A stretch of 64,000 nucleotides of DNA from an uncultured Acidobacteriota bacterium (GTDB lineage: Bacteria; Acidobacteriota; Vicinamibacteria; Vicinamibacterales; SCN-69-37). The translations under genes and the position numbers were made by a program. How positions within the stretch are numbered: the stretch's first letter is position 1; each line of letters opens with the position of its first letter. This document shows positions 37,160 through 54,337 of the stretch, piece by piece. The notes beneath the pieces were generated by a model. It had not been told where the DNA came from. It worked only from the letters and a program-made list of their open reading frames with translations, and ran no database searches. Location: positions 397,472-461,471 of the forward strand of contig CAVRVJ010000005.1 of the NCBI GenBank assembly GCA_963724645.1, given 5' to 3'.

Positions 37160-37519
37160 ATGAACCATTACCTGCTCAGCATCTACCAGCCCGACGGCGA
37201 AGCTCCACCACCCGAAATCCTGCAGCCCATCATGAAGAACGTCAACCTGGTGCGCGAGGAGATGAAGGCGGCCGGCGTCTGGGTGTTCGCAGCCGGACTC
37301 CATCCACCGAGCACGGCCACTGTCGTGCGAATGAAGGACGGCGAATTGCTGACCACCGATGGCCCGTTTACTGAAGGCAAGGAGCACATTGGAGGCTTTT
37401 CGATCGTCAAGGCGGCCGATCTCGATGCCGCCCTCGAGTGGGGGAGCAAGCTCGCCCGTGCGACGACGCTTCCGATCGAGGTCCGGCCCCTCCGGCCGCA
37501 CGGCAGCCAGGATGCCTGA
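37160..37519 (+). CDS. YCII-related (DGPF) domain protein
   Basis: '[16 protein letters not shown]...[29 protein letters not shown]'. ATG 37160 within ORF 37112..37519. Confidence 0.75.
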
Positions 37520-38741
37520 CGGGCCGGTCGGATCGCCGTCGGAGATCGAACGGGTCTTCCGTCAGGAGTACGGCCGCGCGGTTGCGTCCCTGGTGCGTGT
37601 CTTCCATGACATCACCCTCGCCGAGGAGGCGGTGCAGGACGCGTTCACGACGGCCGTGCAGCGGTGGCCTTCGACCGGGCTGCCGCCGAGCCCGGTTGGG
37701 TGGATTATCACGACGGCCCGCAATCGGGCCGTCGATCGCCTCCGCCGCGAGGCCTCCCGAGATGACCGCCACGCCCAGGCCGCGCTCATGCACGAGAGCA
37801 GTCAGGTTGAGGAGGATGTTGTGGAGGACGATCGACTGCGCCTGATCTTCACGTGCTGTCATCCGGCGCTCGCGCCGAGCGCGCAGGTCGCCCTGACCCT
37901 CCGGCTCCTCGGCGGGCTCACAACACCGGAAATCGCACGAGCCTTCCTGGTGCCTGAGGCGACGATGGCCCAACGGCTGGTCCGAGCCAAAGGGAAGATC
38001 CGGGATGCGGGCATTCCCTACAGGGTGCCGGCGGACGTCAATCTGCCCTTCCGCCTTCGATCCGTGTTGGCCGTCGTCTACTTGATCTTCAACGAAGGCT
38101 ACACGCCGAGTTCGGGCGAACGGCCGGTCCGCCAGGAACTCTGCGCGGAAGCCATCCGCCTTGGACGATTACTCGCGGAGCTGATGCCCAGGGAACCGGA
38201 AGTGATCGGGCTGCTCGCGTTGATGCTGCTCATCGAATCGCGCCGCGGAGCGCGGTTTGGATTGAACGGCGGGCTGATTCTGCTGGCCGATCAGGATCGC
38301 CGCACATGGGATCGCACCCTGATTGCCGAAGGTCAGATGCTCGTGCGGCGGTGCCTTCGGCGCAACCGGCCTGGCCCCTATCAGATTCAGGCGGCAATCA
38401 ATGCCGTGCACAGCGACGCGCGCACCGCTGCCGACACAGACTGGCGTCAGGTCCTGCAGTTGTACGATCAGCTCCTGGCGCTGGCGCCAAGTCCGGTCGT
38501 CGCTCTCAATCGCGCGGTCGCGGTCGCCGAAGTCGAGGGACCTCACGCGGGACTGACGCTCATCGATGAGCTCGACCTCGCTCATTACCACTTGTTCCAT
38601 GCCATCCGCGCCGAGCTGCTCCGGCGATTGGGCCGCCCCCTCGAAGCGATTGCGGCGTACGACGCGGCAATTGCGCGAAGTGAGAACGCGGTCGAGCGCG
38701 CCTTCCTTCAGAGCAAACGCGCGGCGGTCGCGCGAGTGTGA
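37512..38741 (+). CDS. ECF-type sigma-70 family RNA polymerase sigma factor with long C-terminal TPR-like extension
   Basis: ATG 37512 (8-nt overlap with the YCII gene). Region 2 '[16 protein letters not shown]...[18 protein letters not shown]', region 4 '[28 protein letters not shown]'. A YCII + sigma pairing is a known arrangement. Confidence 0.8.
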
Positions 38742-38753: not shown

Positions 38754-41195
38754 CTAATCGTTGCGCAGCACGATTAGCGGATTCGTCCGAGTCGCCAGCC
38801 GCGTCGGTGGAAGCGTGGCTATCACGGTCGAGCCGACCAGCGCCGCCGCCGTACCGAGCAGCACGAGCGGGTCGGTGGGTGCCACTTCGAACAAGAGCGG
38901 TTGGACGAGGCGACCGGCGGCAAGAGCGGCTGCCACGCCGAGTCCTGCGCCCAGAAACCCGATGATCAGTGCCTGCCGCAACACGAGGGTGCGAACGCTC
39001 GAGGGCGCCGCGCCGAGCGCCATCCGGATACCAATCTCGCGACGGCGCTGTCGTACGAAGAATGCCATGACGCCGTACGTGCCGATCACCGAGAGCACGA
39101 AACCGAGCGTGGCGAAGGCCACGACGAGCGCGGACTGAAAGCGGGGCCGGGCAAGCGGGGCCGCGAGCATGCTCGGCAGAGGCGTGACACTCGTGACCGC
39201 CGCATCAGGCTCCGCCGTCTTCACAGCCTGCCGAAGCACGCCGGCGATTGACGTCGGGTGCGCCGTACGCACGGCCAGGAATGACACGCCCACGGGAAGG
39301 CCCTGGAGGTAGGGCACGTAAATACTCGGACGCAACGTTCTCAAGTCGCGGTAGCGCGTGTCAGCCACCAGACCAACGACGGTCCGCCACTTCCCCGCCG
39401 ATCGTTCGTGCGCAAACTCGACCCGCCGGCCGATCGGATCCTGACCACGCCAGAACAGACGCGCGAAACTCTCGTTAACCACCAGAACGAGTTGGCTGCC
39501 CGCACGGTCCTGGGCCTCGATCCCACGGCCCCTGAGGATCGGCAGGCCCAGCGTCGCGAAGTAATAAGGATCGGCGCCTTCGTAGTTGACGAATGGGTTG
39601 GTGGATTCGTCGAGGCGCTGGCCTTCGGCGTACACAATCGCATCGACGCCTTGAGTACCGGCGAAAGGTTGGGTCGCCAGCGCGCTGGCATGGGAGACAC
39701 CCGGCAGCGTCGACACATACTCCGCCAACCGCACCATGGCGCGTTGGAGGTCCGCGGGGCTTGGATAGCGCGACGAAGGCAAGGCAACTTCCGCGAGCGC
39801 AACGTCCGCAGGGGCGAATCCGAGCGGCAGCCGCTGCATCCGATCGAAGCTCCTGAGGAGCAGCCCCGCCGTCGACAGGATGAGCGTGGCGATCGCGACC
39901 TGCGCGACCACAAGCCCGTGCCGAAGCCAATACTGGCGCGTGCCACGGGCGGTGGTCTGGTCGGACATGCGCAGGGCGTCCGCCGGTTCGCCGCGCGCCG
40001 TGTGCAGAGCCGGGAGGACGCCGAACAGCAAGGCCGTCACGATCGCGGCGACGCTGGCGAACCAGAGGGCTCGGCCATCAATCGCAATGGACGCAAGCCG
40101 AGGCAACTCCGGTGGTGCGAGAGAAAGAAGGCCAATGAGCGCCAACCGGGCCGCGAACACGGCCAGCCCGGCGCCCGCCGCCGAGAGCACCAATGCCTCA
40201 ATGACGAGTTGGCGCACAAGCCGACCACGACTCGCGCCGATGGCTGTGCGCACGGCGAATTCCCGCCGGCGGGCAAGGCCGCGCAGGAGCAGCAGGTTGG
40301 CCACGTTCACTCCAGCCACGATCAACATGAGCAAGACGACGACGCCGAGCACCAGTAGCCCTGGCCTGACGTCGCCGACCACGGCGTGGGCGAAGGGCAT
40401 CGCGACGATGCGCTGGTTGCCGCTCACGCCGGATTCTGTCTTGAGCGAGATCATCACCGACTGCAGATCCGCTCGGGCCTGATCGATCGTGAATCCCGGC
40501 GCTATACGCGCCATCAAGTTCCAGTCAACGTAATGAGAGTCACGAAACGGCGCGGCCGGCATCCACGCCTCCGACCCGCGCGGATACTCGAAGCCTGCCG
40601 GAGTCACGCCGACGACCCTGCACGAGCCTTCGTCCACGCGGAGAGTACGGCCGAGCGCATTTCGAACGTTGCCGAACAAGCGCTCGGCGAGACCGCTCGC
40701 GAGCACGATGACAGGCTCCGCACCATCGCGGTCGTCAGAGGGCGTCAACAAGCGGCCAACCCGAGGTTGAACGCCGACCACGTCAAACCATTCGCCGGTC
40801 ACGGCCGTGCGCTGCAACGACTCAGCCGATCCATCATCACGGTGCAGGACGGCCGTCAGAGTGTCCGCATATGGGTGCGCTGCGAGGCTGCTGACTGCGT
40901 GCAGCCGCTCGCGCATGGCCTCATAGGTTCGGTACTTGAAGGGCCAGTTCTCCATTCCGCGATCCGGCGCCGACTTCCAGACCACGAGCAGGCGCTGCTG
41001 ATCCTTGACTGGAAATGGCTTGAGCAACACCCCATCGACGACCCCGAATACCGCCGTCGCCGCACCGATGCCCAGCGCCAGCGTCAACGCAGCCGCTGCC
41101 GCAAAGCCGGGATGCGCGAGAAACAGGCGGAGCGCGTATCGAACGTCGCCGCTGAGGTCTTCCATGTCGCGCATCCACGCCGATCGATTCACCAT
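38754..41195 (-). CDS. ADOP-family duplicated FtsX/MacB-type ABC transporter permease
   Basis: Intact 813-aa ORF. N-terminus '...DVRYALRLFLAHPGFAAAAALTLALGIGAATAVF' and two FtsX-like 4-TM modules. The start may be one of the internal Met codons (MRDMEDL). Confidence 0.85.
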   Translation of the reverse strand: MVNRSAWMRDMEDLSGDVRYALRLFLAHPGFAAAAALTLALGIGAATAVFGVVDGVLLKPFPVKDQQRLLVVWKSAPDRGMENWPFKYRTYEAMRERLHAVSSLAAHPYADTLTAVLHRDDGSAESLQRTAVTGEWFDVVGVQPRVGRLLTPSDDRDGAEPVIVLASGLAERLFGNVRNALGRTLRVDEGSCRVVGVTPAGFEYPRGSEAWMPAAPFRDSHYVDWNLMARIAPGFTIDQARADLQSVMISLKTESGVSGNQRIVAMPFAHAVVGDVRPGLLVLGVVVLLMLIVAGVNVANLLLLRGLARRREFAVRTAIGASRGRLVRQLVIEALVLSAAGAGLAVFAARLALIGLLSLAPPELPRLASIAIDGRALWFASVAAIVTALLFGVLPALHTARGEPADALRMSDQTTARGTRQYWLRHGLVVAQVAIATLILSTAGLLLRSFDRMQRLPLGFAPADVALAEVALPSSRYPSPADLQRAMVRLAEYVSTLPGVSHASALATQPFAGTQGVDAIVYAEGQRLDESTNPFVNYEGADPYYFATLGLPILRGRGIEAQDRAGSQLVLVVNESFARLFWRGQDPIGRRVEFAHERSAGKWRTVVGLVADTRYRDLRTLRPSIYVPYLQGLPVGVSFLAVRTAHPTSIAGVLRQAVKTAEPDAAVTSVTPLPSMLAAPLARPRFQSALVVAFATLGFVLSVIGTYGVMAFFVRQRRREIGIRMALGAAPSSVRTLVLRQALIIGFLGAGLGVAAALAAGRLVQPLLFEVAPTDPLVLLGTAAALVGSTVIATLPPTRLATRTNPLIVLRND

Positions 41196-41364: not shown

Positions 41365-43332
41365 TCATGGGCGGTTGCCGTCAGTCGTCCAATGCCACGT
41401 GCCGAGCGCAAATGAGAGGCGGCGCGGATCGCGGTTGTCGCGGCGACCGCCATCCGGCGACGGAGGTTCCGCCGGGTGAAACGTGAGCTCGTGTTCTCCG
41501 GGAGTGAGGGTCAGCGAGCCGAGGTGATAGACCTGACGTGATGGTTCCACCTGCAGCGACGGCCTCGGCCGGCCGTCGAGCCGCAAATCCAACTGCCGCG
41601 AGTGCCTGAACGCCCAGAGCTCCACATCGAGGGCGGCCACGACCACATTGTGGCTTCGATTGATGACCGTCCAGGCCGCGTCCGCACCCATCCAACGCCA
41701 GCTCATCCGCTCATCGTGTTCGCGCACGAAGAAACCAGTCAGGACCGCGGTATATGCGGAAGGGGGAGACGCCGTGATCGTGAACAGATCCGCGAGACGG
41801 AAAGGGCGCTCCAGACGCAATCCGCCTGCCAATGGTGCCCGCGCGAACCAGTGTGCTTCGTCGGTGCCATGTCGGACGAGCAGATGGGTGAAGCCGGCGG
41901 CCGACAGCCGTTCGGCAAAGTTCGGCTCGAGGCAGTCATCGAGCGTTCCGCCGCGCAGGACAATTCGACCGCCTGTGAGCCATTGGATCGACGCCGACTC
42001 CTCATCAAGGGGGCTGCAGTCGAACGCTCTGGCACCTGCGTGCTGGACAACCCATCGATGCGCGGGCGTCGGCAGCACGTCACGCCACAATGCACCCGGC
42101 CAGATGGTGTACTCGCCGGCAGTGAGCGCCAGAAGCGTGACGCACGCGATGCTCGCACCTCGTGTTCCGGCGCGCCAAAGACGTTCCGCGCCGATCGCCG
42201 CCAGGAGCGCCGTCAGGAGCTGGACGACAACACCGAAGCGCGCATAGGAGCGGAACATCGGCAATGCATCGTAGAGGACGGCGGATGGCCACTTGACGCT
42301 GAATCGACCGATCGTGCTTTCGGGCGGGAGCGAGCAGACGAATGCGACGAGTGCGGTGATCAGCAACACCGGCACGGCCGCCAGCCGTTTCTCATCCCGG
42401 CCGTGGATCAGCCACGAAAATACCGCGACGGATCCCAAAGCGACCAGCCCCCAACCAAGGCTGACCTGCTGTTCGAGCAGCCCTTCGCGCGTGCCGGCCG
42501 CGGCCCATACCGCGCCCGCGACGCCGCCAAGAAATGGGTTCGCGACCGGAGGCACCAGATAGCTCCACCAGGTCGCGCTATATCGGAACAGATCGCTTCG
42601 GCCGAATGCAAATATCGCGGGATTGATCACCACGTCGTGGGCGGCGTGCCAGGCATAAGCGATTCCGGCGCCCGCAATGACAATAAGGCTGCCAATCGTG
42701 ACGGCGAGTCGTCGAGCCGAATGGGCCTGGCGTCGCGAGATGACGATCCAGTAGCTGACGATCGCCACCGGGGTGATGGCCGCTGCGATCAATCCGCCGT
42801 AAAAATTTGAGAGCACCACCGCCGCGCACGCAACCGCGAGGAGTCCGACCGCCGCGGCCGTGGGTGTGTCGAGACACCGCCAGAGCACGAGGATGTAGAG
42901 CGCCACCCATTGGGTCTGCGCAATGTGGGGGTGGTACGCCGCGTGTGCGAGGTGGAAGGGTGAAAAGGCGAACGCCATCGCGGCGAAGGCTGCGCCTGGA
43001 GGTGAGACCGCGAGGTGGCGCGCGAGCAGATACGACGTTGCGGCGGAGAGCGGGAACGTCAAGAGGACAAGCCAGTTGTACGCGGCCACTGGACCAGCCA
43101 TCCGCGCGAACAGCCTGCCCGGCAGATCGGTGAATGGCTGAAAGTACACGCCGCCCAGGACGGGGCGCGAGAACTGCTCCATCACGGTGAACGGATCGTG
43201 GTGGCGCCCGACGATTTCCATTCCGAAGATTCGGTCCGATGGCGCGAGGAGCACTGGAGCCGCGACGACGAGCGTGATGATGACGGCGAGCGCCACGACC
43301 GCGCTCACCTCAACGACACGACCGGTGGTCAT
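41365..43332 (-). CDS. Large polytopic membrane protein (GT-C/YfhO-like fold suspected) with a C-terminal extracytoplasmic domain
   Basis: About 13 hydrophobic helices followed by a ~250-aa soluble region. ATG 43332 overlaps the stop of the upstream exosortase-fusion gene (ATGA, 43329-43332). Confidence 0.6.
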   Translation of the reverse strand: MTTGRVVEVSAVVALAVIITLVVAAPVLLAPSDRIFGMEIVGRHHDPFTVMEQFSRPVLGGVYFQPFTDLPGRLFARMAGPVAAYNWLVLLTFPLSAATSYLLARHLAVSPPGAAFAAMAFAFSPFHLAHAAYHPHIAQTQWVALYILVLWRCLDTPTAAAVGLLAVACAAVVLSNFYGGLIAAAITPVAIVSYWIVISRRQAHSARRLAVTIGSLIVIAGAGIAYAWHAAHDVVINPAIFAFGRSDLFRYSATWWSYLVPPVANPFLGGVAGAVWAAAGTREGLLEQQVSLGWGLVALGSVAVFSWLIHGRDEKRLAAVPVLLITALVAFVCSLPPESTIGRFSVKWPSAVLYDALPMFRSYARFGVVVQLLTALLAAIGAERLWRAGTRGASIACVTLLALTAGEYTIWPGALWRDVLPTPAHRWVVQHAGARAFDCSPLDEESASIQWLTGGRIVLRGGTLDDCLEPNFAERLSAAGFTHLLVRHGTDEAHWFARAPLAGGLRLERPFRLADLFTITASPPSAYTAVLTGFFVREHDERMSWRWMGADAAWTVINRSHNVVVAALDVELWAFRHSRQLDLRLDGRPRPSLQVEPSRQVYHLGSLTLTPGEHELTFHPAEPPSPDGGRRDNRDPRRLSFALGTWHWTTDGNRP

Positions 43333-45125
43333 CCTCTTGGAATCACTCTCACGTCCACGTCCCGAGCGCCAAGCGCCGAGGCGAGTTTCTCCTTCCACGG
43401 CCACTCGGCGTGGGGCCGACAGCAGTACAGATCGAACGCGGCGAAAGCCTGTTCAGGGTACGTGTGTACGCTCAGGTGCGACTCCGACAGCATGGTGATG
43501 CCGGTGATGCCACCCTCGCCGGGAAACGCGTGCCACATCGGCGCGCCGACCGGCGTCAGGCCGAGCGACTCGACGACGTCGCGCAACAGTGCCTGCAAGA
43601 TAGCGGGCGACCGCAGGGCGTCCGGGTCGCACCCGGACGCGTCGACGACGTAGACGACGCCGGTCGATCGAACAGCCGCCCGTGCCGCTGCCGCCGGCGA
43701 CGTCCTCGGTGTGTCGAAGACGTCGACGCCCTGATAGCCGCGCCCGCGCGGGCCAGCCGCTGAGGTCCAGAAAAGCGCGACGATAGCCGGGACGCCGAGC
43801 GCCCAGCCCCGCACGATAACTGCGTGGGGCATGACACCCCACTGCGCATGCACGGCGGCGGCTCCTACGATGAAGCCGATCTGGGATCCGAGAAGCCAGC
43901 CGAGCCCGACAGCGAGTGCGCGCCACGCCCGTCCGCCAGTGAGGGCCAGCCACAGACCGCACGCGAGGGCGAGTTGGTAGCCGGGCATCAGCGCGAGCGC
44001 GCCCTGCTGATCGCCGGCGCTCGCGAGCGGAAGCGGCGCGATGTGGAAGCGGTTGGCCACGCCGCCCGCGACCCACTCGACGACGCTCCGCCAAGGCGTC
44101 GCCGCGACCACACCAACGGCGAGCGCTGCCCCCAGGACCGAAACGGAGGTCCACGACGATCGGGCCGTCGGGCCGTGCCGCGTCGCCCAGTGCGCAGCAC
44201 CGACGAGAACAACGGCGCCGGCAACGAACTGATAAAACCCGTGCGCCAGGTGCATCGGCGATTCGGCGACAAACGGCGGAAGGGCGACGACCAGCAGGCG
44301 CGCGACACTCAGCCCGAAAAACAGCGGCACGCCAAGAAACAGCCAGCCGATCCGTCGGTCACGGGGCATCGGCAGCGCGCACAGCGCCGCCGCATACAGG
44401 GGGATCATGGGCGTGAAGAGACACTCTGGCGTGACTTGGAAGCTGCCGCGCCCGCTGAACAGCACGTTGCCCGTCGTTTGAACGCTGACGCCGAGCGTGG
44501 AGAGCACCAGGCCTCCCACGCTCGTAGTCAAGGCCCCCACGCCGACGAGGGTCGAGCTCTGGAATGCCCACGGCAGCGAGGCGGCGTACGCGGCGAGCGC
44601 CACGGCCGCGAACAGGCCGAAGCGTAGCAATCGGCGATCGACCACGACCGATCGGCGATCACTCCACCGGATCCACGCCATCACGTATCCAACGGCCGCC
44701 AGGACGAGCGCAACCGGCCACACATACAGGTGCAGCAGGTCGAACCGCGCTGGATCGGACACGACCAGATACAGCGATTCGATACGCATCATATTCAAGG
44801 CAAGGATCAGGGCGAGTCCGCCGGCTGCGCCGGCGATGCGCCGGGGCCAAACGGCCGGATAGGCGAGCGTGACGCCCACGCATAAGGCCATCACGTCGGC
44901 GCCGCTGCAACTGGAGTTGACGACGATCCCCTTGTGTTCGGCGATCCCGTACCACATGACCACGGACTTCTGAAACTCGATGAGCGCCGTGATCACGTGT
45001 GCCTGGATCCACTCCAGTCGAAGGAGCCCGAAGAGCGCGACGTTCCAGACGAGCGCGCGGAGCAGGAAGCGGCCGGCGTGGTCGGGTACCGCCCGGTTCG
45101 CGATGGCGTGGGCGTGCGCCGTCAT
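43329..45125 (-). CDS. Exosortase-like membrane protein (two tandem exosortase-like modules) fused to a C-terminal S-adenosylmethionine decarboxylase (SpeH/SpeD class 1) domain
   Basis: Module 1 has 'VVNSSCSGADV' (Cys), 'LALNMMRIESL' (Asn/Arg) and 'FDLLHLYVWP' (His). Module 2 has 'FQVTPECLFTP', 'LSVARLLVV' and 'MHLAHGFYQ'. The C-terminus reads 'VVYVVDASGCDP...GITGITMLSESHLSVHTYPEQAFAAFDLYCC...RVIPRG'. RBS 'gaggaag' precedes ATG 45125. Confidence 0.7.
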   Translation of the reverse strand: MTAHAHAIANRAVPDHAGRFLLRALVWNVALFGLLRLEWIQAHVITALIEFQKSVVMWYGIAEHKGIVVNSSCSGADVMALCVGVTLAYPAVWPRRIAGAAGGLALILALNMMRIESLYLVVSDPARFDLLHLYVWPVALVLAAVGYVMAWIRWSDRRSVVVDRRLLRFGLFAAVALAAYAASLPWAFQSSTLVGVGALTTSVGGLVLSTLGVSVQTTGNVLFSGRGSFQVTPECLFTPMIPLYAAALCALPMPRDRRIGWLFLGVPLFFGLSVARLLVVALPPFVAESPMHLAHGFYQFVAGAVVLVGAAHWATRHGPTARSSWTSVSVLGAALAVGVVAATPWRSVVEWVAGGVANRFHIAPLPLASAGDQQGALALMPGYQLALACGLWLALTGGRAWRALAVGLGWLLGSQIGFIVGAAAVHAQWGVMPHAVIVRGWALGVPAIVALFWTSAAGPRGRGYQGVDVFDTPRTSPAAAARAAVRSTGVVYVVDASGCDPDALRSPAILQALLRDVVESLGLTPVGAPMWHAFPGEGGITGITMLSESHLSVHTYPEQAFAAFDLYCCRPHAEWPWKEKLASALGARDVDVRVIPRG

Positions 45126-45182
45126 CGGCGAGCCGCTTCCTCACCCGTCATCAAGGGTCTGCGAAGGGAAACCCTCTTCACA

Positions 45183-45791
45183 TCATGCCGTCAAGATGCG
45201 CCGTCGCAGCGCGATGTACGCGCCCGCCATCATCAGCAGCGCACACACTCCGAGCATCCAGACCGGAAGCGTGGGAACGGCGCTCCCGACCGCGGGGAGG
45301 AAGCCGCGAATTTCACCGCCCGGGTTGTTGGCCGTGTGGATGTTGACGTAGGCCCGCCCCGCCGTGATCCCCGCCACCAACGCCGCTTCGGCGCTGGCCG
45401 GCGTGCCGCCGTTGGCGGTAATGAATGCTGGGTTCCAGCTGCCCGCCTGCGTCATGTCGTATGTCTGGTCCATGCTGCCGCTCGTGACGCCCAGAGGAAA
45501 GCCCACGAACGAAGGCGTTGTTGTCGCGACGCCGGCATTTCCTGGCGGCACCACGCAGCAGTGGATATGAGAAGCCGTCGTGTTCGACGTCAGTCCGGAG
45601 AATGTGGTCGTGACGCGTACCGTATGTCCAGGTGCGTTCACGATGACGGTCGTGAAGCCCGTTCCCGGCGATGAAACAGCCGGGTTCTCGTTGGCGCCCG
45701 CGAGCGAGGCCTGAAAAACCTGCGCTTGAGCCACCGAAGCCAAGATCAGAAACACGAAGCTTGCCGCCAGTCGTTCGCATGTGCGTCGCAC
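45183..45791 (-). CDS. CHRD domain protein with IPTLxxW-type (IPTL/PEP-CTERM-like) C-terminal sorting signal
   Basis: GTG 45791 preceded by 'aggaga'. Signal peptide 'LAASFVFLILASVAQAQ'. CHRD motifs 'LAGANENPAVSSPGTG', 'ASHIHCC', 'YVNIHTANNPGGEIRGFL'. The C-terminus is 'VPTLPVWMLGVCALLMMAGAYIALRRRILTA'. Confidence 0.75.
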   Translation of the reverse strand: MRRTCERLAASFVFLILASVAQAQVFQASLAGANENPAVSSPGTGFTTVIVNAPGHTVRVTTTFSGLTSNTTASHIHCCVVPPGNAGVATTTPSFVGFPLGVTSGSMDQTYDMTQAGSWNPAFITANGGTPASAEAALVAGITAGRAYVNIHTANNPGGEIRGFLPAVGSAVPTLPVWMLGVCALLMMAGAYIALRRRILTA

Positions 45792-45948: not shown

Positions 45949-46320
45949 TTATTCCTTCACGTCAACGCGTGTCGTCTGCACTTTCGACTGTTTTCCCTTT
46001 GTCACGCGCGTTTGCAGATTCCAAGAGCCGACCATGAAGAAATTGGCCTTGCCCTCATACACGCCCGGAGCGGTCATTCTCGCCGGCCACTTGTGTTCGC
46101 CGTGGTCCATGTCGATCATCGTCACGACCAACTCCACGGCCGCGCCTGACACCGGCTTGCGTTTTCCGTCATTCACGGTGACCTTCATCGGCGTGTCGTA
46201 GTTCGCGATGATCTTTTTTTGAGCCTCCGTGGTGATCGTCCAATCGGGAGCCATTTGGGCGGAGGCGCTGACGGCGAAGGTCAGCCACAACAGGTGGGCC
46301 ATGAATCTCATAGGGCTCAT
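45949..46320 (-). CDS. Secreted FixH/YtkA-like Ig-fold protein
   Basis: 123-aa ORF with signal peptide 'MAHLLWLTFAVSASAQ', then 'PVSGAAVELVVTMIDMDHGEHKWPARMTAPGVYEGKANFFMVGSWNL'. Confidence 0.45.
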   Translation of the reverse strand: MSPMRFMAHLLWLTFAVSASAQMAPDWTITTEAQKKIIANYDTPMKVTVNDGKRKPVSGAAVELVVTMIDMDHGEHKWPARMTAPGVYEGKANFFMVGSWNLQTRVTKGKQSKVQTTRVDVKE

Positions 46321-46512: not shown

Positions 46513-46956
46513 GTGAGCCGCATCGTGGAGGATTCACGCGCGCCTGACGACCCCCCACGCTTACCGGTGGTCAGGACGCCTCCTGGCGAGGCATCGGACC
46601 CGGTCGATCGAGCCGTGCTCGCGACGCTGGTTCTTGCGTTCGCGCCCGTGCACAAGGCCGCGCTTGGCGGTGCGGTCGGTATCACGCTCGGCGCGCTCGT
46701 CCTGACGCTGACGGCGTACCATCTGCTCGCGCAGCCGGAGCCCGCCCCTGATCTGCGGCTGCTGAACCAGTACTTCTTTGGCTACGCCGTCTCGTGGCCG
46801 GGCGCGTTCATTGGCGGTTTCTGGGCCGCCGTCGTGGGGTACGTCGCCGGCTGGTTCCTGGCGTTCCTGCGCAACCTCAGCGCCGCCACGATCCTGTTCA
46901 TGATTCGGACGCGCGCCGAATTGGAGCAGACCCGGGACTTCCTCGATCACATTTGA
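46513..46956 (+). CDS. Small membrane protein, paralog 1 of a three-member family
   Basis: 'ALGGAVGITLGALVLTLTAYHLL...LRLLNQYFFGYAVSWPGAFIGGFWAAVVGYVAGWFLAF'. Start is uncertain. Confidence 0.55.
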   Translation: MSRIVEDSRAPDDPPRLPVVRTPPGEASDPVDRAVLATLVLAFAPVHKAALGGAVGITLGALVLTLTAYHLLAQPEPAPDLRLLNQYFFGYAVSWPGAFIGGFWAAVVGYVAGWFLAFLRNLSAATILFMIRTRAELEQTRDFLDHI

Positions 46957-46964: not shown

Positions 46965-47273
46965 ATGACCGAGCATCTTTCACCCGACGAGGCCCGGGCC
47001 ATTCAACGGCAGGTGCGCCGCGTCAACGAGCAGGCGTGGGGCGTCGCCCTGGGAGCCTTGTCCGGTCTGGGCTTGTTCGCCGCGACCAACGTGCTGGTCC
47101 TGCGCGGCGGGTGGAACGTGGGAGCGCACCTGAGTTTGCTCCAGGTCTTCTTCCCGGGATACCGCGTGACATTCGTCGGGAGTCTGATCGGCTTCGTGTA
47201 CGCTTTCGTCCTGGGCTATGGCATCGGGTGGGCGATCGGGGCCCTGCTGGCGCGCTTCAATCGCGCGACGTGA
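46965..47273 (+). CDS. Small 2-TM membrane protein, paralog 2
   Basis: 'RRVNEQAWGVALGALSGLGLFAATNVLVLRGGWNVGAHLSLLQVFFPGYRVTFVGSLIGFVYAFVLGYGIGWAIG'. ATG 46965. Confidence 0.6.
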   Translation: MTEHLSPDEARAIQRQVRRVNEQAWGVALGALSGLGLFAATNVLVLRGGWNVGAHLSLLQVFFPGYRVTFVGSLIGFVYAFVLGYGIGWAIGALLARFNRAT

Positions 47274-47284
47274 CCCCACCGCCC

Positions 47285-48742
47285 ATGGCGCCTCGCACCG
47301 TCGATCAATTGCAACCAGGCGATCGTGTCATCGTGGTGGGCGCGGGTCCTGCCGGCCTGACGGCCGCCTATTTCCTACGCGATCGAGGCGTCCGCGTCAC
47401 TGTCCTCGAGGCCGACGACGTCGTCGGCGGCATCTCGCGCACGGCCCAGTACCGCGGCTTCCGGTTCGACATCGGGGGTCACCGCTTCTTCACCAAGATT
47501 GAAGCTGTCAATGCCATGTGGCAGGAGATTCTTGGGAACGAGCTCATCACCGTCCCGCGACTGTCGCGCATCTATTACCAGGGCAAGTATTTCGATTACC
47601 CGCTGAAGGCGGGCAAGACGCTCCGGCAGCTCGGCCCCTTCTCGGCCGCCGCCATCGTCCTCAGCTACTTCAAGTGGCGCCTCCGCCCCTATCCGGTTGA
47701 AGAGAACTTCGAGCAATGGGTGACCAACCGATTCGGGAAGCGGCTCTTCGAGATCTTCTTCAAGACTTACACGGAAAAAGTCTGGGGCATCCCGTGCCGT
47801 GAAATCAGAGCGGAGTGGGCCGCGCAACGCATTCAGGGATTGTCGCTGGCCAAGGCGGTCCTTGCGGCCACGCCGCTGAACAAGCGTGGCGCGGCGATCA
47901 AGACGCTCATCCACGAATTTCGGTACCCCCGACTCGGCCCGGGCCAGATGTGGGAGCGGTGCCAGGACCAGGTCGTGGCGGCCGGCCACGACGTGCTGCT
48001 GCGCCACCGGGTCCATCGCATCGAGCGTCGTGGCGACCGGATCGTGGCGGTCCACGCGTGCACGCCCGAAGGCGAACGCCGGTTCGAAGGGAACCACTTC
48101 TTTTTCACCATGCCGCTTCGATCCCTCGTCCGCGCGATGGATCCGGCCGTCCCGGCTGAGATCCGGGCCGCCGGCGAGGGGCTCGCGTACCGCGACTTCA
48201 TCCTCGTCGCCCTCGTCCTCGGACGACCGCGGCTGTTTCCCGACAACTGGATTTACATCCACAGTGCCAGCGTGAAGGTCGGGCGCATCCAGAACTTCAA
48301 CAACTGGAGCGCGGCGATGGTTCCCGTCGAGGGAAAAACGTGCCTGGGCCTCGAGTACTTCTGCTTCAAGGGCGACGCCCTGTGGGAGGCGTCCGATGAC
48401 GAACTGGTCCGGCTGGCCTCGCAGGAACTCGAGGTACTGAAGCTGGGACGCCGCGTCGATGTCGAAGACGGTACCGTCATCCGCATGCCCAAGGCGTATC
48501 CCATCTACGATTCCAGCTACCGCGCGAATCTCGCCGTCATCCGGTCGCTCGTCGACTCCATCGGCAATCTGCACACGATCGGCCGCAACGGCATGCACAA
48601 ATACAACAATCAGGATCATTCGATGCTGACAGCCATGCTCGCCGTGGAGAACCTGCACGGCGGCACCCACGATCTGTGGGAGATCAATAGCGATTTTGAT
48701 TACCATGAAGAGCAGCGCATCCAGCCGCAAGCCAGCCTATGA
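47285..48742 (+). CDS. NAD(P)/FAD-dependent oxidoreductase (amine-oxidase / protoporphyrinogen-oxidase / UDP-galactopyranose-mutase-like)
   Basis: ATG 47285. Dinucleotide fold 'VIVVGAGPAGLTAAYFLRDRGVRVTVLEADDVVGG'. 'GGHRFFTK', 'YPRLGPGQMWE', 'GRNGMHKYNNQDHSM'. Confidence 0.8.
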   Translation: MAPRTVDQLQPGDRVIVVGAGPAGLTAAYFLRDRGVRVTVLEADDVVGGISRTAQYRGFRFDIGGHRFFTKIEAVNAMWQEILGNELITVPRLSRIYYQGKYFDYPLKAGKTLRQLGPFSAAAIVLSYFKWRLRPYPVEENFEQWVTNRFGKRLFEIFFKTYTEKVWGIPCREIRAEWAAQRIQGLSLAKAVLAATPLNKRGAAIKTLIHEFRYPRLGPGQMWERCQDQVVAAGHDVLLRHRVHRIERRGDRIVAVHACTPEGERRFEGNHFFFTMPLRSLVRAMDPAVPAEIRAAGEGLAYRDFILVALVLGRPRLFPDNWIYIHSASVKVGRIQNFNNWSAAMVPVEGKTCLGLEYFCFKGDALWEASDDELVRLASQELEVLKLGRRVDVEDGTVIRMPKAYPIYDSSYRANLAVIRSLVDSIGNLHTIGRNGMHKYNNQDHSMLTAMLAVENLHGGTHDLWEINSDFDYHEEQRIQPQASL

Positions 48743-49038
48743 GCAGTGATGACGAGCGGCGTCTTCGGAAGAGGTACCTTCGGTTCAACGAACACGCCTG
48801 GGGGATTGGTTTGGCGCTCATCGTCGGCGGCGTCCTCTGGCTGGTCACAATCGCGCTCGTTTTGAGGGGCGGTTATCCCATCGGACCGCACCTCGGACTG
48901 CTTGCCGCGTATTTCCCCGGCTATCGCGTCACGGTGCCGGGCGCCTTCCTCGGCGCCGCGTATGGATTGATCGTCGGCTATGCGATCGGGCGAGTGATCA
49001 GCGGCCTCTACAACCGGCTGAGCGGGCCCGGCGCCTAG
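48739..49038 (+). CDS. Small 2-TM membrane protein, paralog 3
   Basis: 'LRFNEHAWGIGLALIVGGVLWLVTIALVLRGGYPIGPHLGLLAAYFPGYRVTVPGAFLGAAYGLIVGYAIGRVI'. ATGA overlap with the oxidoreductase stop. Confidence 0.6.
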   Translation: MSSDDERRLRKRYLRFNEHAWGIGLALIVGGVLWLVTIALVLRGGYPIGPHLGLLAAYFPGYRVTVPGAFLGAAYGLIVGYAIGRVISGLYNRLSGPGA

Positions 49039-49047
49039 CGGGCAGAA

Positions 49048-50505
49048 ATGGCAGGCGCACGCGGGCTTCGGGGCAGGTTCGTTTTCCTCCGCGACTTCGG
49101 CATTCTCGCCGGCGGACAGGTGATCAGCCGGATCGTCGCGTTCCTCGCATTTGCCCGTCTCGCGCGGACGCTTGGCCCCCAGAACTACGGGCTCGTCGAG
49201 TATGTCGTCGGACTGGCCATGCTCTTCGGGGCGGCGGTCGAAACCGGCCTCGGCACGGTCGGCATCCGGCGCATCGCGCTGCGGCCGGAGCAACTGCCCG
49301 CGGTGGCCGCTCAGATTCCAACTGCCCGGTTCGTCATGGCCCTGGTGAGCGTGCCTGTCATGCTGTTGATTGCGCGCCCGCCGACGCACGGCACCGGCGC
49401 CCAGGGCCTCGTGTGGCTGTACGCTCTCAGCCTCCTGGTCGCTCCGTGGCGGCAGGACTGGCTGCTGCAGGCAACAGAGCGGATGACGGAGGCGGCCGTG
49501 GCGCAGATCCTGCGCACAACGGTCTTCGCCTTCGTCGTCATCACTCTGGTTGCCTCGCCGGACGATCTGCTGTGGGTGGGATGGGCCGAAGTGGCGGCGG
49601 TCTCAGCGATGAGCCTGTTCTGCTTCGCCGTCCAGCACGCCAGGATCACTCCCTGGCGGTTCCATGCATCCATCACGGGGCTGCCCGATCTGGCCACGGA
49701 GGGAGGCTTGATCGGTCTCGGGAGCATCGCGTGGTCGGCCAACCAATATGCGCCGCTCCTGCTGATGGCCTACTTCGCCGGCGGAGAGGAGACGGCGTGG
49801 TTCGCCGCCGCGAACCGCGTGATGGGATCGCTGCTGGCGTTCTCTAACCTTTATTACTTCAACCTCTATCCCGCCATCGCCCGCGCGACGGCGGCCGATC
49901 AGGACGAACTCGCGGCCATTCTGGCGGCGTCGTACCGGGTGCTCGCGTGGAGCGGCACGCTGGCGGCGCTGTGCCTGACGTTGCTCGCGGAGCCGCTGGC
50001 GACGCTCGCGTTCGGCGCGCAGTTCAGCCACGCGGCCTCCGTGCTGGCAATCATGGCCTGGGCGTTGCCCGTGGCGCTGCTCTCCGGGCATGCGCGCTGG
50101 TCTCTCGTCGCCGCGGGGGCGCAGGCGCGCGTGGTGTCCGCGCAGCTCGTCGGCTCAATCGCCGTTGTCGCCGTCGGAGTGCCCGCGATCCTGCTCCTGG
50201 GCGGACGCGGCGCCGCGCTCGCGGCGATTGCGGCACCGCTGGCCGTGTGGCTGGTCTCGCACGCGTTTGCCTCGCGCGTCGGCGTCAGGCTTCCTTTGTT
50301 CCGGCTCGGCTTCCGCCCCGCGTTGCTTGCGCTCGTCGCCGTGGCGGCCGTCAAGGCCCTGCATCTGACGTCGTGGTCCGCGGCGGCCGGCGTCGCGTTG
50401 TTTGCCGGCGCAGCGCCGTTTGTCGATCGGCAGCTTCTGCGGGACCTGCTCAGACTTGGCGAGATTCGCCGCAGCGCGCCGGTTCAGAGCACCGGCGCAG
50501 TCTGA
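49048..50505 (+). CDS. Polysaccharide biosynthesis protein / oligosaccharide flippase (Wzx-like, MOP superfamily)
   Basis: 485-aa ORF with about 12-14 helices and an N-terminal 'ILAGGQVISRIVAFLAFARLARTLGPQNYG' pattern. Confidence 0.75.
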   Translation: MAGARGLRGRFVFLRDFGILAGGQVISRIVAFLAFARLARTLGPQNYGLVEYVVGLAMLFGAAVETGLGTVGIRRIALRPEQLPAVAAQIPTARFVMALVSVPVMLLIARPPTHGTGAQGLVWLYALSLLVAPWRQDWLLQATERMTEAAVAQILRTTVFAFVVITLVASPDDLLWVGWAEVAAVSAMSLFCFAVQHARITPWRFHASITGLPDLATEGGLIGLGSIAWSANQYAPLLLMAYFAGGEETAWFAAANRVMGSLLAFSNLYYFNLYPAIARATAADQDELAAILAASYRVLAWSGTLAALCLTLLAEPLATLAFGAQFSHAASVLAIMAWALPVALLSGHARWSLVAAGAQARVVSAQLVGSIAVVAVGVPAILLLGGRGAALAAIAAPLAVWLVSHAFASRVGVRLPLFRLGFRPALLALVAVAAVKALHLTSWSAAAGVALFAGAAPFVDRQLLRDLLRLGEIRRSAPVQSTGAV

Positions 50506-50516
50506 GTCGCCGCTCG

Positions 50517-51278
50517 ATGCCATCCACCGTTCCGATCCTGACGTTCCACGCGATCGACGATCGCCCGTCGGTGATCTCCTGCACGCCCAAAGTCTTCCGG
50601 GGAGGCATGGCCCTCCTGCATCAAGCCGGCTATCGCACCATGGGACTTCTGGAAGCCGTCGACTGCCTCCATCACGGAGGCGGGTTTCCCAAGCGGGCCT
50701 TCGTGCTCACGTTCGACGATGGGTTTCAGAGCGTGTATCGTGAAGCCTTTCCCGTGATGCGGGAGCTCGGGATGCGCGCGACGGTTTTTCTCACGGTCGG
50801 AGCGGCCCGCGGCGCGTCGACAGATCGACTGCCCTCATTCGAGGGTCGGACGATGCTGAGCTGGCGTGAGGTGCGGGAGATGCAGGCGGCCGGCGTCGAG
50901 GCCGGCGCCCACACACTTACCCACCCGGATCTCACGCGCCTGCCGGCCGCGCGGATTGCGGTGGAGATGCGCGAGTCGCGCGAGGTCATCGAGGACGCCG
51001 TCGGAGCCGCCGTGCGGACCTTCGCGTACCCGTTCGGGCGTTACCATCCGGACAGCCAGCGGATCGCGCGTGAATACTTCAGCTGCGCGTGCGCCGATAC
51101 GCTCGGGCTGGCATCCCGGCGCAGCGATCCCTACGCACTCGAGCGAGTGGACACCTACTACCTCCGTCATCGGCGCGTGTTCGCCCTGACGACGACGCCG
51201 CTGTTTCCCTGGTATGTTGCAGCGCGCAGTCTGCCGCGCCGGCTGCGGCGCGCGTTCGAACGACGCCGGTCCGCCTGA
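50517..51278 (+). CDS. Polysaccharide deacetylase (NodB/CE4 family)
   Basis: ATG 50517. 'VLTFDDGFQSVY', 'ATVFLTVG', 'GAHTLTHPDL', 'FAYPFGRY' CE4 motifs. Confidence 0.85.
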   Translation: MPSTVPILTFHAIDDRPSVISCTPKVFRGGMALLHQAGYRTMGLLEAVDCLHHGGGFPKRAFVLTFDDGFQSVYREAFPVMRELGMRATVFLTVGAARGASTDRLPSFEGRTMLSWREVREMQAAGVEAGAHTLTHPDLTRLPAARIAVEMRESREVIEDAVGAAVRTFAYPFGRYHPDSQRIAREYFSCACADTLGLASRRSDPYALERVDTYYLRHRRVFALTTTPLFPWYVAARSLPRRLRRAFERRRSA

Positions 51279-51289
51279 ACAGGGCACTC

Positions 51290-52561
51290 TTATTTGCCAG
51301 GCGGCGCGAGGGCCTCGGACAGGCTGACCAGTCCGCGCCGAGCCGCGACCGATCGAATGAGATCGAGATACGCAGCCAACGCGGCCGTCTCGCTCCATCT
51401 CGCGCGAAACGCGCGCTCGCCGGCCTCGCCCATCGCTTGTCTCCTGGCCGCGTCGATCGTGAAGGAGCTGATGGCGGCGTCGAGCTCCGCTTCGTTCTGG
51501 AACAGCAGCCCGCCGGCGCTGGCCTCGATGATCTCCGGGTACGGCCCGATGCGCCTGGCAATGACCGGCGTTCCGTGCCGGAAGGCTTCGAGCACGACCA
51601 GCGGAAACACCTCGTAGCCCACCGAGGGGGCGATCAGCGCACGGGCGCCGCCGTACAAAGCATGCAGGCGCTCCGGCGGAACGTGCCCCAGGAATTGCAC
51701 GTTGGGACTTCCACGCGCGAGCGCCCGCAGCTCCGCTTCGGCCGTTCCGGTCCCGGCGATCCGGAGATCGGCCGGGCGATGTTGGTCGAACAAAGGGATG
51801 ACCGCCTGCAGCCCTTTGATTCGCTCGAGCCTCCCGACGAACAGGAAATACGGCCGCGACGACTCGGGCGCGACCGGCACATCGGATGGGAGGTCGGGAA
51901 GGAATGACCCCATCACCGTCATTGCCGGTGTAAAGCCGAATTCGGCGTGCTTGTCGGCGCTGAACCGGCTGAGCGCGACGAAGGCGTCGATGTGGCGCGC
52001 CTCGCGGGGAAGCAGGCGGCTGGCACGCCACAGTTGCGGCGGCCGTCGGTAGGCGATCGCGCAGCGTACACACTGTCGGCTGGTGCACACCTCCCGGTTG
52101 TGCCGCCAGAGCGTGTGGGTCGGGCAGACGAGCCAGTGTTCATGTGCGGTATAGAGCTTCACGCCGGTGCCGCACTCGAGGACGCCGGGCCCGCCGATGA
52201 GCGACACATTGTGGAAATGGATGACATCGAACGGATCGGCCAGCAGCCGGCGGAGGCGGCGGCCGTGAACGATCCGGCGGCCGAGCTGGTGGGTCGCCAG
52301 AGACGACAGCGCGGGCAGCGCGCTCCGCAGGGCATGAACGGTCACGCCCGGCGACGGCGGCGGCACGGGGACCTTGCGGTGGCCGCCCAGAACGGCATAG
52401 GCGTCTGCATCGCAGATCACGTCGATGATGTGCCCGCGTCGCGCGAGCGCGTGGGCCAGGTTCCGGACGTACTCGCCATCTCCGCCGAAGCTGTATGGCG
52501 GGTAGAACGTGGTCACCATCGCGATGCGCAGAGGCCGTCGCGTGGGAATGACACCGGACAT
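51290..52561 (-). CDS. Glycosyltransferase family 4 (GT-B) with inserted Cys-rich segment
   Basis: 'RIAMVTTFYPPYSFGGDGEYV', 'FVGRLERIKG', 'PSVGYEVFPLVVLEAFRHGTPVI'. Cys cluster 'CPTHTLWRHNREVCTSRQCVRC'. Confidence 0.85.
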   Translation of the reverse strand: MSGVIPTRRPLRIAMVTTFYPPYSFGGDGEYVRNLAHALARRGHIIDVICDADAYAVLGGHRKVPVPPPSPGVTVHALRSALPALSSLATHQLGRRIVHGRRLRRLLADPFDVIHFHNVSLIGGPGVLECGTGVKLYTAHEHWLVCPTHTLWRHNREVCTSRQCVRCAIAYRRPPQLWRASRLLPREARHIDAFVALSRFSADKHAEFGFTPAMTVMGSFLPDLPSDVPVAPESSRPYFLFVGRLERIKGLQAVIPLFDQHRPADLRIAGTGTAEAELRALARGSPNVQFLGHVPPERLHALYGGARALIAPSVGYEVFPLVVLEAFRHGTPVIARRIGPYPEIIEASAGGLLFQNEAELDAAISSFTIDAARRQAMGEAGERAFRARWSETAALAAYLDLIRSVAARRGLVSLSEALAPPGK

Positions 52562-52630
52562 CGCGGCCTAGTGTAGCGTCGGCCGGGAACCGCCAGGCAT
52601 CGTTCACGCGGAGTCCTCGGCCGCGAGCCG

Positions 52631-54232
52631 ATGTATGGTAAAAAATCGTCCACTGTGGCGCGGTGGCTCCCCGGCGAGGCTCGCGAGGGCGGCAGGTCAA
52701 GGACGTGGGTCTACCTTCTGATTCTGACCGGCATCAGTGTGGCCGCGCGCCTTCCGCAACTGCTCAGCCCCAATCTGCTGCTCGATGGCGACGAAAGCCT
52801 CATCGGTCTGATGGCGAAGCACGTCGCCGAAGGGCGGTCGCTCGCGATCTTCGTGTACGGCCAGCACTACGGGCTGTCGATAATCGAAACGGCCGCGGGC
52901 GCGCTCAGCTTTCTCCTGTTTGGCATGGGCGCGATCCCGTTGAAGGTCGCCATGTTGGCGCTGTGGACACTGGGCGTGCTGTTCATGTTTCTGGCGCTGT
53001 CACGAATGATCGGGGCCTGGCGCAGCTTCTGGATCATGGCGGTGTTTCTCGTCACGCCCGCCTGGGCCGCGACGTCGATGACCGCCTGGGGAGGCTACAC
53101 GACGGCCTTTACCGTCACCTCCGTGCTGGTCTGGCTGCTGGTCAGCGGCCTGCCGCACGACGGGATCGTGCGATGGCTCATCGCCGGGGCGTTGACGTCG
53201 GTGATCTATCTGGCGCGGCCGCTCTGGCTGCCGGGTCTCCTGCCGATCGTGGCCGTTGTCCTCTTCGCATCGCAGAGACGGCTGTCATTGGGCATCAGCT
53301 ATGTCGGCGGGGCCGCCGCGGTCATGGCGGTCATCAAACTGCTGACCGTCGACAGCCTCAACGTGTGGGAAGGACCCGCGCTGGGCAACTGGGCACTGCT
53401 CGAGACGCTGCCCGGCGCCGCACGCCAGGTCTATGTGAACCTGACCGGCGCCTATTTCCTTGGTGGAATGCGCGAACCGCCAGGGCCGGCGAGCGAACTG
53501 CTCGCGCGGCTCTGGTGTGTCCTGCTCCTGTTGGTGGTTCCGGCACAGGTGTATCGCATAGTCACCAGGCGATACTGTGTTCTCTCACATTTGCTGTTCC
53601 TGGCTGTCTGCGCATCGCTGATCACGCCGTGGCTACTGTTCTTCGTCCGCGACGCGCGATATCTTCTGCCGCTCGGCGCGCCGCTTGTCGTCCTCGCCGG
53701 CGTCGAGCTACTCGATTTCGTCGACCGGGGAATCGTCCCCAGGCGGGTGGCCATCGCCGCGACCACGGCGGCGCTCGTGCTGGGATCCATGTCGATGTAC
53801 AAATTCCGGAAGTTCAACCATTTGTGGGTGAATCCGCCGAACGCCCTGGCCGAAGCCGAGAGAATGCACCGCGTGATCTTCTACCTGCAGGCGAAAGGCA
53901 TCAGGCACGTGTTCTCGATGAACGGACTGCTCGACTCCCAGCTCGTCTTCTACAGCGAAGAGCGTGTGCTCGCTCGATGGACTCCCTGGAGGGTCCGCTA
54001 TCCGCCGTACACCCACTCGGTCAATCGAGCGCTGGATCGTGGGATGACGGTCGCCCTCGTGGGCTATACCGACACGAGCGGCGCACCTGGCTGCTCGAAC
54101 GCGCAAGTCTGCACCGGCGGGATTGCCAGGCTCGTGCCGCATCCGGAATCCATCGTCACTGTGGATGACAAGTACTTCATCGTCGCCGGCGTCACCAAGC
54201 CAGTGCTGAAGCGGCTGGGGTTCAGGTTCTGA
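52631..54232 (+). CDS. GT-C-fold membrane glycosyltransferase-like protein (ArnT/PMT-like)
   Basis: 533-aa ORF. The first loop 'LLLDGDESLIGLMAKHVAEG' contains an acidic motif. More than 10 helices and a C-terminal soluble domain. Confidence 0.65.
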   Translation: MYGKKSSTVARWLPGEAREGGRSRTWVYLLILTGISVAARLPQLLSPNLLLDGDESLIGLMAKHVAEGRSLAIFVYGQHYGLSIIETAAGALSFLLFGMGAIPLKVAMLALWTLGVLFMFLALSRMIGAWRSFWIMAVFLVTPAWAATSMTAWGGYTTAFTVTSVLVWLLVSGLPHDGIVRWLIAGALTSVIYLARPLWLPGLLPIVAVVLFASQRRLSLGISYVGGAAAVMAVIKLLTVDSLNVWEGPALGNWALLETLPGAARQVYVNLTGAYFLGGMREPPGPASELLARLWCVLLLLVVPAQVYRIVTRRYCVLSHLLFLAVCASLITPWLLFFVRDARYLLPLGAPLVVLAGVELLDFVDRGIVPRRVAIAATTAALVLGSMSMYKFRKFNHLWVNPPNALAEAERMHRVIFYLQAKGIRHVFSMNGLLDSQLVFYSEERVLARWTPWRVRYPPYTHSVNRALDRGMTVALVGYTDTSGAPGCSNAQVCTGGIARLVPHPESIVTVDDKYFIVAGVTKPVLKRLGFRF

Positions 54233-54337
54233 AAGCGAAGTCGAAGGCAGGGCCCAGCGTGCCTGGCGGGCTCGACGGTCCGGCCTGCGTGCATAGCCAC
54301 TTGGGCTCTGGGATAAAGATTCAGGTGATGCCCCGGC

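Follow-up and report, generated by a model that had tools for sequence, protein, structure and literature searches.

Most exosortase systems have many substrates and complex polysaccharide loci and are hard to dissect; PEP-CTERM systems typically have many substrates in each genome. Exosortase H (XrtH, TIGR04177) is defined in TIGRFAMs as 'IPTLxxWG-CTERM-specific'. We know of no acceptor that has been identified for the substrates of bacterial exosortases. For ArtA, which acts on PGF-CTERM proteins in Haloferax volcanii, the proposed model is a cysteine acyl-enzyme (i.e. a thioester) that is resolved by archaetidylethanolamine, a lipid amine arising from PssA and PssD, and in Methanosarcina the genes for PssA and the decarboxylase PssD flank artA (PMC7157517). 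Here we describe a locus in a 64,000-nucleotide (nt) stretch of DNA from an uncultured bacterium of the Vicinamibacteria (the window; contig CAVRVJ010000005.1), where the gene for a small CHRD-domain protein that ends in a putative sorting tail lies directly upstream of that for a tandem exosortase fused to an S-adenosylmethionine decarboxylase (AdoMetDC). We take these genes, with a probability of about 0.75, to be an operon of a cargo and its cognate sortase of the exosortase class; the type would be a diverged IPTL-CTERM/XrtH-like one that is specific to Vicinamibacteria. Its features are as follows, with lengths of proteins in amino acids (aa).

45183-45791, reverse strand: gene of the secreted CHRD cargo protein, 202 aa, with a C-terminal sorting tail (open reading frame (ORF) and translation; G+C content at third codon positions 0.76)
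45720-45791, reverse strand: putative signal peptide, residues 1-24, MRRTCERLAASFVFLILASVAQA followed by QV (read from the sequence; helix at residues 2-20 in the AlphaFold2 (AF2) model)
45297-45716, reverse strand: CHRD domain, residues 26-165 (PF07452, 82.2 bits; predicted β-barrel like that of superoxide dismutase (SOD))
45186-45278, reverse strand: putative sorting tail, residues 172-202, with VPTLP motif, transmembrane (TM) helix and RRR (VPTLPVWMLGVCALLMMAGAYIALRRRILTA; diverged IPTL-CTERM)
45126-45182, reverse strand: intergenic spacer, 57 nt, with GAGGAAG 5′ of the exosortase ATG (sequence and terminator scan)
43329-45125, reverse strand: tandem exosortase fused to AdoMetDC, 598 aa, the putative cognate sortase (TIGR04178; AdoMet_dc)
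44655-45071, reverse strand: exosortase domain 1, residues 19-157, XrtH-like, with C73, R114 and H132 (XrtH, 57.9 bits)
44166-44618, reverse strand: exosortase domain 2, residues ~170-320, diverged, with E234-C235, R276 and H295 (XrtX, XrtH and TIGR04178)
43716-44153, reverse strand: third membrane module, residues ~325-470 (conservation in the exosortase alignment A1, and hydropathy)
43332-43664, reverse strand: AdoMetDC domain, SpeH-type, pyruvoyl, residues 488-598 (PF02675, TIGR03330)
41365-43332, reverse strand: polytopic membrane protein, 655 aa, DUF6311, GT-C-like (exact protein P0221; precomputed PF19830)

The locus resembles the IPTL-CTERM/XrtH system in having a tripartite signal with a PTL core, a tryptophan two residues later, a TM helix and arginine. 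The exosortase domain matches XrtH end to end, and CHRD is a common cargo of this signal class. It differs in that both the tail and the enzyme fall below the cutoffs of the curated models, the motif reads VPTLPxWM in place of IPTLxxWG, the cargo is adjacent to the enzyme and the host belongs to the Vicinamibacteria. Moreover the XrtH model has ~158 positions and describes a single domain, whereas the 598-aa enzyme of the window has a double exosortase, a third module and AdoMetDC. A second comparison is with vicinamibacterial loci encoding ice-binding-like proteins, which have the same exosortase family (35-52% identity) with its invariant residues, DUF6311 and one neighboring gene with a VP[TAS]LP tail. 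By contrast, the cargo in those loci is a PF11999 protein that may also have He_PIG domains and is usually encoded divergently from the exosortase, whereas that of the window is a CHRD protein encoded co-directionally, and most of the enzymes there lack the AdoMetDC fusion. We found no description in the literature of loci combining ice-binding-like IPTL-CTERM proteins, a tandem exosortase and DUF6311.

Two further systems can be compared. The PEP-CTERM/XrtA (EpsH) system belongs to the same superfamily, shares the logic of motif, TM helix and arginine and is associated with polysaccharide genes (a flippase and a GT4 gene lie nearby in the window), but the tail of the window lacks the PEP motif. 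In the ArtA/PGF-CTERM system the homologous cysteine enzyme has a linked amine-making decarboxylase, PssD, to be set beside the fused pyruvoyl AdoMetDC of the window that would also give a primary-amine product. However, AdoMetDC is unlike phosphatidylserine decarboxylase in fold and substrate class, the host of the window is diderm and the motif is another one; attachment to lipid has been proposed for ArtA, whereas the present system is known from its genes.

The organization of the genes is that of a compact transcription unit. The cargo ORF starts with GTG at 45791, with AGGAGA 6 nt upstream, and stops with TGA at 45183-45185; an exact look-up found the identical 202-aa protein among the calls of public assemblies (P0095, 100% identity). 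The original prediction, made from the sequence of the window alone, had placed cargo and sortase 57 nt apart on the same strand, and the gap is exactly this length. No terminator-like site was found in it by the terminator scan. The stop of the exosortase gene overlaps the start of the 655-aa gene by 4 nt, and the same scan places a terminator-like hairpin at 41367-41352, directly after the DUF6311 gene. A promoter scan of 41-47 kb found no sigma-70-like promoter. The cargo and sortase genes are thus adjacent and probably co-transcribed.

The enzyme passes the general exosortase/archaeosortase signature TIGR04178 with 44.7 bits against a cutoff of 23. XrtH is the best of the specific models on the whole 598-aa protein, although at 65.9 bits it is below its cutoff of 86, and XrtX gives 63.7 bits against a cutoff of 170. 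In relatives of the enzyme the XrtH score ranges from 43 to 75 bits, and is below 86 in every member tested. Domain 1 aligns with positions 2-157 of the 158 in the XrtH model. In A1, an alignment of 30 exosortase sequences, both domains keep the catalytic triad: domain 1 has R114 and H132 without variation and C73 with a conservation of at least 90%, and in domain 2 C235, R276 and H295 are all invariant. Domain 2 has low scores (XrtX 24 bits, XrtH 22.5 and TIGR04178 20.7). The third membrane module has conserved D372-x-Q374-G-A, P381 and Q384 in A1, and gave no match to NCBIfam.

The AdoMetDC domain matches PF02675 with 86.7 bits against a cutoff of 25, and scores 74.5 bits with the equivalog TIGR03330, just under the cutoff of 75.65. 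It aligns with T. maritima 1TLU as SESHLSVHTYPE against SESHLTIHTWPE, and as DLYCC against DLFTC. By sequence it retains the SESH (Glu-Ser) self-processing motif and the catalytic cysteine.

Homologues of the whole enzyme come almost exclusively from Vicinamibacteria/Acidobacteriota. They form 133 clusters at 50% identity (E ≤ 1e-30, among 1.84 billion representatives), and occur in four architectures, i.e. a core of ~450 aa, the core with AdoMetDC (~595 aa), with a class-I methyltransferase (~720 aa), and with both (~850 aa). Judged from these alignments and scores, the enzyme is a member of an uncurated family of tandem exosortases found mostly in Vicinamibacteria. The identity of exosortase H that had been suggested for it does not hold, given the sub-cutoff XrtH score, the nearly equal score of XrtX and the tandem arrangement of two exosortase domains.

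The third gene is retained with the second, since a DUF6311 gene lies directly 3′ of the exosortase gene in 58 of 78 related loci. Pfam, NCBIfam and PDB searches with the window's own 655-aa protein returned no family. Its relatives give YfhO at 27.1 bits against a cutoff of 28.5, i.e. a weak likeness to YfhO and PTPS_related of the GT-C clan. The DUF6311 protein is a probable third component of the sorting system.

The linkage of cargo and enzyme can be assessed across the family. The 78 related loci were taken with flanks of up to 10 kb, and the exosortase ORF was located in 77. Tails were sought as the pattern [VI]P[TAS][LMVW][PSTA] followed by a TM helix and basic residues at the end of an ORF. 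In 54 of the 77 loci a tail-bearing ORF is located no more than 1.5 kb from the exosortase gene. Counted by ORF, the pattern occurs in 55 of 3224 in this neighborhood and in 6 of 7875 farther away. The loci lacking a tail are mostly contigs that end early, or belong to the clade with the methyltransferase fusion. Where present there is generally one tail-bearing gene in the ±10-kb flanks, and rarely two. Ice-binding-like (PF11999) proteins, often with He_PIG domains, account for 39 of the 45 tail ORFs detected by profile, and those of their tails that were tested pass both PF18203 (25-42 bits) and TIGR04174 (36-39 bits). The core of the tail across the family is VP[TAS]LP, which the VPTLP of the window fits exactly, and the same class of motif accompanies the exosortase across the unrelated cargo domains ice-binding-like, DUF7507 and CHRD. 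The tandem exosortase is linked to genes with VP[TAS]LP tails, and the linkage is statistically strong and phylogenetically recurrent.

The ice-binding-like (PF11999/DUF3494) cargo is present in most of the related loci (L011-L076), where it is usually divergent from the exosortase. In one of the loci (L051, 917-1780, reverse strand) a long His/Asp repeat (DDHHDGDDHHDDHHDDHH...) takes the place of the sorting tail at the end of an ice-binding-like protein.

The order of a CHRD gene and then the exosortase gene on the same strand is found in six diverged contigs, i.e. the window, a sister contig from JGI (proteins P0100 and P0001, with 79 and 71% identity to those of the window), and L082, L084, L088 and L089. 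Three of these (L082, L084 and L088) were obtained from a metagenome-wide scan for VPTLPxWMLG. This gave seven matches of which three are genuine C-terminal tails, and all three belong to CHRD proteins followed by this exosortase. In L089 the gene upstream of the exosortase ends ...VPAVPGLLMALTALLMIVGGYVALRRRQLTA. Because the CHRD-exosortase order recurs in these six diverged contigs, the CHRD version is a lineage-specific swap of cargo, in which CHRD has replaced the ice-binding-like protein.

Several observations weigh against a dedicated pair of this kind. The nearest exosortase relatives among those with the methyltransferase fusion (L003-L009) mostly have no adjacent cargo. A cargo thus need not be encoded beside the enzyme, and the genome may hold further substrates at other sites. 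In other taxa the canonical CHRD-IPTL genes do not lie next to an exosortase gene. The enzyme fails all of the specific exosortase models, and XrtH is only slightly ahead of XrtX; indeed for P0001, the closest homologue, XrtX scores above XrtH. The reading also leaves the role of the second exosortase domain unexplained.

Some of these points would be accommodated if the locus belonged, as an ordinary example, to the canonical IPTL-CTERM/XrtH system, with a divergent XrtH, dispersed substrates and an adjacency that is incidental. XrtH is after all the top specific model for the enzyme, the gene is dispersed in the canonical relatives, the CHRD protein with an IPTL-CTERM tail is widespread and already annotated, and the relatives with the methyltransferase fusion mostly lack a neighboring cargo. 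But the enzyme has a tandem architecture with three modules and a length of 450 aa or more, and all members tested are under the XrtH cutoff. A cargo gene adjoins the exosortase gene again in 54 of 77 loci and in the six CHRD-type contigs, and the VPTLPxWMLG variant has been found only on CHRD proteins that are followed by this exosortase. We therefore regard the ordinary system as an unlikely description of the locus, and prefer the cognate operon.

The cargo protein itself has the form expected of a substrate. At its N-terminus MRRTCERLAASFVFLILASVAQA followed by QV looks like a Sec signal peptide, and in the alignment of homologues a hydrophobic core followed by A-x-A is kept at this position. 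Judged by sequence, neither a lipoprotein nor a Tat signal is indicated, as a lipobox cysteine is lacking and the RR lies outside the Tat consensus. PF07452 matches the CHRD domain far above its gathering threshold of 24.1 bits and is covered from position 1 to 117 of 117. The tail VPTLPVWMLGVCALLMMAGAYIALRRRILTA comprises the last 31 of the 202 residues, so that motif, TM helix and basic cluster follow one another at the extreme C-terminus; the helix (residues 177-201 in the AF2 model) has a mean Kyte-Doolittle value of 2.21, and RRR is 5 residues from the end of the protein. The original prediction of a signal peptide, a complete CHRD domain and a tail of motif, TM helix and arginine cluster is thus upheld by Pfam, AF2 and the sequence.

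Whether the tail is of the IPTL type is less direct. The original prediction had named a search with the IPTL-CTERM model as the check and failure of the sorting-domain profile as evidence against it, and the tail fails both curated profiles. With TIGR04174 it gives 16.6-17.5 bits against a cutoff of 20.5, although the alignment extends over the full model (1-27), and with PF18203 neither the tail nor those of four close homologues gave a match even at E ≤ 10. Both results count against the assignment. Comparing VPTLPVWM with IPTLxxWG, the P, T, L and W are kept while I is changed to V and G to M.

On the other hand membership of the class is well supported by the homologues. The proteins of ~200 aa with a CHRD domain form a family of 7937 matches, in which distant members carry an IPTLSEW(G/A) tail at exactly the same position, and in the alignment the more distant homologues grade into canonical IPTLSEWG tails. 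PF18203 is found in many of these relatives. NCBI gives one of them the name 'IPTL-CTERM sorting domain-containing protein', and JGI gives another the name 'CHRD domain/IPTL-CTERM motif'; the combination of CHRD with an IPTL-CTERM tail is a widespread architecture that is already annotated elsewhere. A VPTLP-type motif is kept across 46 homologues, with P173 invariant. We constructed an independent profile from distant CHRD homologues, taking only tails of the canonical IPTL form and leaving out the subclade of the window. The window tail scores 28.9 bits with it, whereas the maximum was 12.9 bits among 2000 full shuffles and 15.8 bits among 2000 shuffles preserving the architecture. Against the 597 ORFs of the window the profile gave a single match (E 2.4e-6), with the next best at E 2.9; the 64-kb window has one such tail among these ORFs. 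The signal region of the midcut_by_XrtH model gives 22 bits on the tail. Because of the homologous tails at the same position, the independent profile with its shuffled controls and the match to midcut_by_XrtH, the tail on its sequence clearly reads as a diverged IPTL-type sorting signal, with VPTLPxWM in place of IPTLxxWG. The class proposed originally thus stands, while the support expected from the curated profiles does not. The tail contains no P-E-P, and no PEP-CTERM model was among its matches at E ≤ 10.

We note that a few close CHRD homologues (P0169, P0202 and P0212) have a tail of the PEP-CTERM type (VPEPxTYAL...) instead of IPTL. This indicates that the CHRD cargo domain has been re-targeted between classes of exosortase.

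Rejection of the tail by the curated profiles would be expected if it were a permanent membrane anchor, such that the CHRD protein would be a bitopic periplasmic protein that is never cleaved and the exosortase would act on something else. Nor did we find any literature on processing in the IPTL-CTERM/XrtH class, which also counts against the proposed operon. A plain anchor, however, needs no conserved VPTLP with a constant spacing to the helix and RRR, and yet the motif is kept in the 46 homologues with its proline invariant, the tail scores far above shuffles that preserve its architecture, and the class of motif tracks the exosortase across ice-binding-like, DUF7507 and CHRD cargos. We consider a simple anchor to be distinctly improbable. 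That the tail is served by another enzyme elsewhere (a sortase-like LAVTG system, a rhombosortase or a myxosortase-type protease) is very improbable indeed, as the match to Microco_LAVTG that might suggest it is weak and sub-cutoff (17 bits against 27) and covers just the generic TM and arginine part, while no such enzyme is encoded nearby and the linkage to the exosortase is strong.

Taking the cognate operon as the preferred reading, a mechanism can be proposed. The CHRD protein would be exported by the Sec pathway by virtue of its N-terminal signal peptide, and would be held in the inner membrane by the C-terminal helix, with RRR in the cytoplasm and VPTLP at the outer face. The tandem exosortase would recognize VPTLP and cleave there via a cysteine thioester, with the arginine and histidine assisting. 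The new C-terminus would then be passed to an acceptor, such that the SOD-like CHRD barrel of ~150 aa would lose its helix and become attached to the cell envelope. The GT-C-like downstream protein and the fused, cytoplasmic AdoMetDC may make or tailor the acceptor, together with the methyltransferase domain in those relatives that have one. This scheme is drawn from the class of the enzyme and the model proposed for ArtA, and the cleavage, acceptor and surface display are all predicted.

One could go further, and suppose that the domains using S-adenosylmethionine (SAM) build an amine-bearing acceptor for the new C-terminus of the cargo. We regard this as speculative, and on balance doubtful. 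A candidate acceptor could be a lipid or glycan head group that is aminopropylated or otherwise modified, assembled with the GT-C-like partner. Such a route would be a counterpart of the one proposed for ArtA with PssD and archaetidylethanolamine. When the A1 alignment, which includes relatives with the methyltransferase fusion, was used as a profile, the best match to a methyltransferase in the PDB was phosphatidylethanolamine N-methyltransferase (8ys9). We found nothing relevant in the literature on an exosortase with AdoMetDC, or on XrtX/XrtY. In two related loci (L090 and L091) there is an extra gene after DUF6311, encoding either a methyltransferase with AdoMetDC (405 aa) or a stand-alone AdoMetDC (120 aa). 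With the fusions, these extra genes indicate that the association of SAM enzymes with the sorting system is recurrent, and not a one-off fusion.

The nature of the displayed domain can also be considered. AF2 models the CHRD protein with high confidence (pLDDT 89.7). Searching the PDB with the model using Foldseek, the top fold matches are all Cu,Zn-SOD, although they are weak (E about 0.03), and a PDB search with the sequence gave no matches. The weak fold matches agree with crystal structures from 2026, in which the CHRD domains of chordin, which bind heparan sulfate, form Greek-key barrels like that of SOD (PMC13382577). Alignment of the CHRD family to human SOD1 by hhalign was not significant (E 0.71), so the correspondence with the copper ligands of SOD remains a lead only. 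In the 46-sequence alignment H75, H77, C78, C79 and H152 are invariant. One CHRD homologue (P0103) is fused to Sod_Cu, i.e. a Cu,Zn-SOD. Upstream of the cargo gene there is one further gene on the same strand.

45949-46320, reverse strand: YtkA/FixH-like periplasmic protein, 123 aa (PF13115, 44.3 bits)

This gene is possibly part of the same transcription unit, although its membership is uncertain. It is without conservation in the related loci, and in the sister contig from JGI a CusF-like gene occupies its position. We note that the YtkA/FixH-like protein holds a MxDMDHGEH stretch. Because of the invariant HxHCC...H, the YtkA-like and CusF-like neighbors and the fusion of CHRD with Sod_Cu, the sequences suggest that the displayed CHRD barrel may be a SOD-like metal-binding module, possibly binding copper.

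The remaining features of the window are as follows.

37359-38741, forward strand: ECF-type sigma factor, DUF6596 with a TPR tail, just downstream of the operon
38754-41195, reverse strand: MacB/FtsX-type permease, just downstream of the operon
46513-46956, about 46965-47273 and 48739-49038, forward strand: three small paralogous membrane proteins with the motif (F/Y)FPGYRVT..GAF(I/L)G
49048-50505: Polysacc_synt flippase
frame of 49947-51278: deacetylase-like ORF, read from sequence only
51290-52561, reverse strand: GT4
54338-55927: GMC oxidoreductase
22056-22129, reverse strand: tRNA gene, the only Rfam match in the window

MacB-like genes recur in six of the related loci. On the other side of the operon there is a polysaccharide-type cluster (47036-55927) that includes a flavin adenine dinucleotide (FAD) oxidoreductase together with the flippase, deacetylase-like, GT4 and GMC oxidoreductase genes listed above. 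The three small paralogues flank an FAD-dependent amine-oxidase-like gene (ORF 47036-48742), and gave no match to a known family.

In summary, the observation from which this study started is confirmed, and its interpretation as a sorting substrate beside its exosortase is mostly right with the corrections given above; the predicted restriction to one substrate is a candidate feature, with the 64 kb of the window as its scope. The operon is about minimal. Its cargo is single, small and well-folding, its sortase has two candidate active sites and a pyruvoyl decarboxylase fused to it, and there is one GT-C-like partner. Being compact, it could be transferred to a heterologous host as a model for the chemistry of exosortase attachment. 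If the reading of an amine-bearing acceptor were true, the three-gene operon with its single small soluble cargo would for the first time open the acceptor chemistry of bacterial exosortases to genetic study. The analysis defines an uncurated family of tandem exosortases with the recognition motif VP[TAS]LP. Since current annotation profiles partly miss this motif, its cargo proteins are under-annotated in the abundant soil Acidobacteriota.

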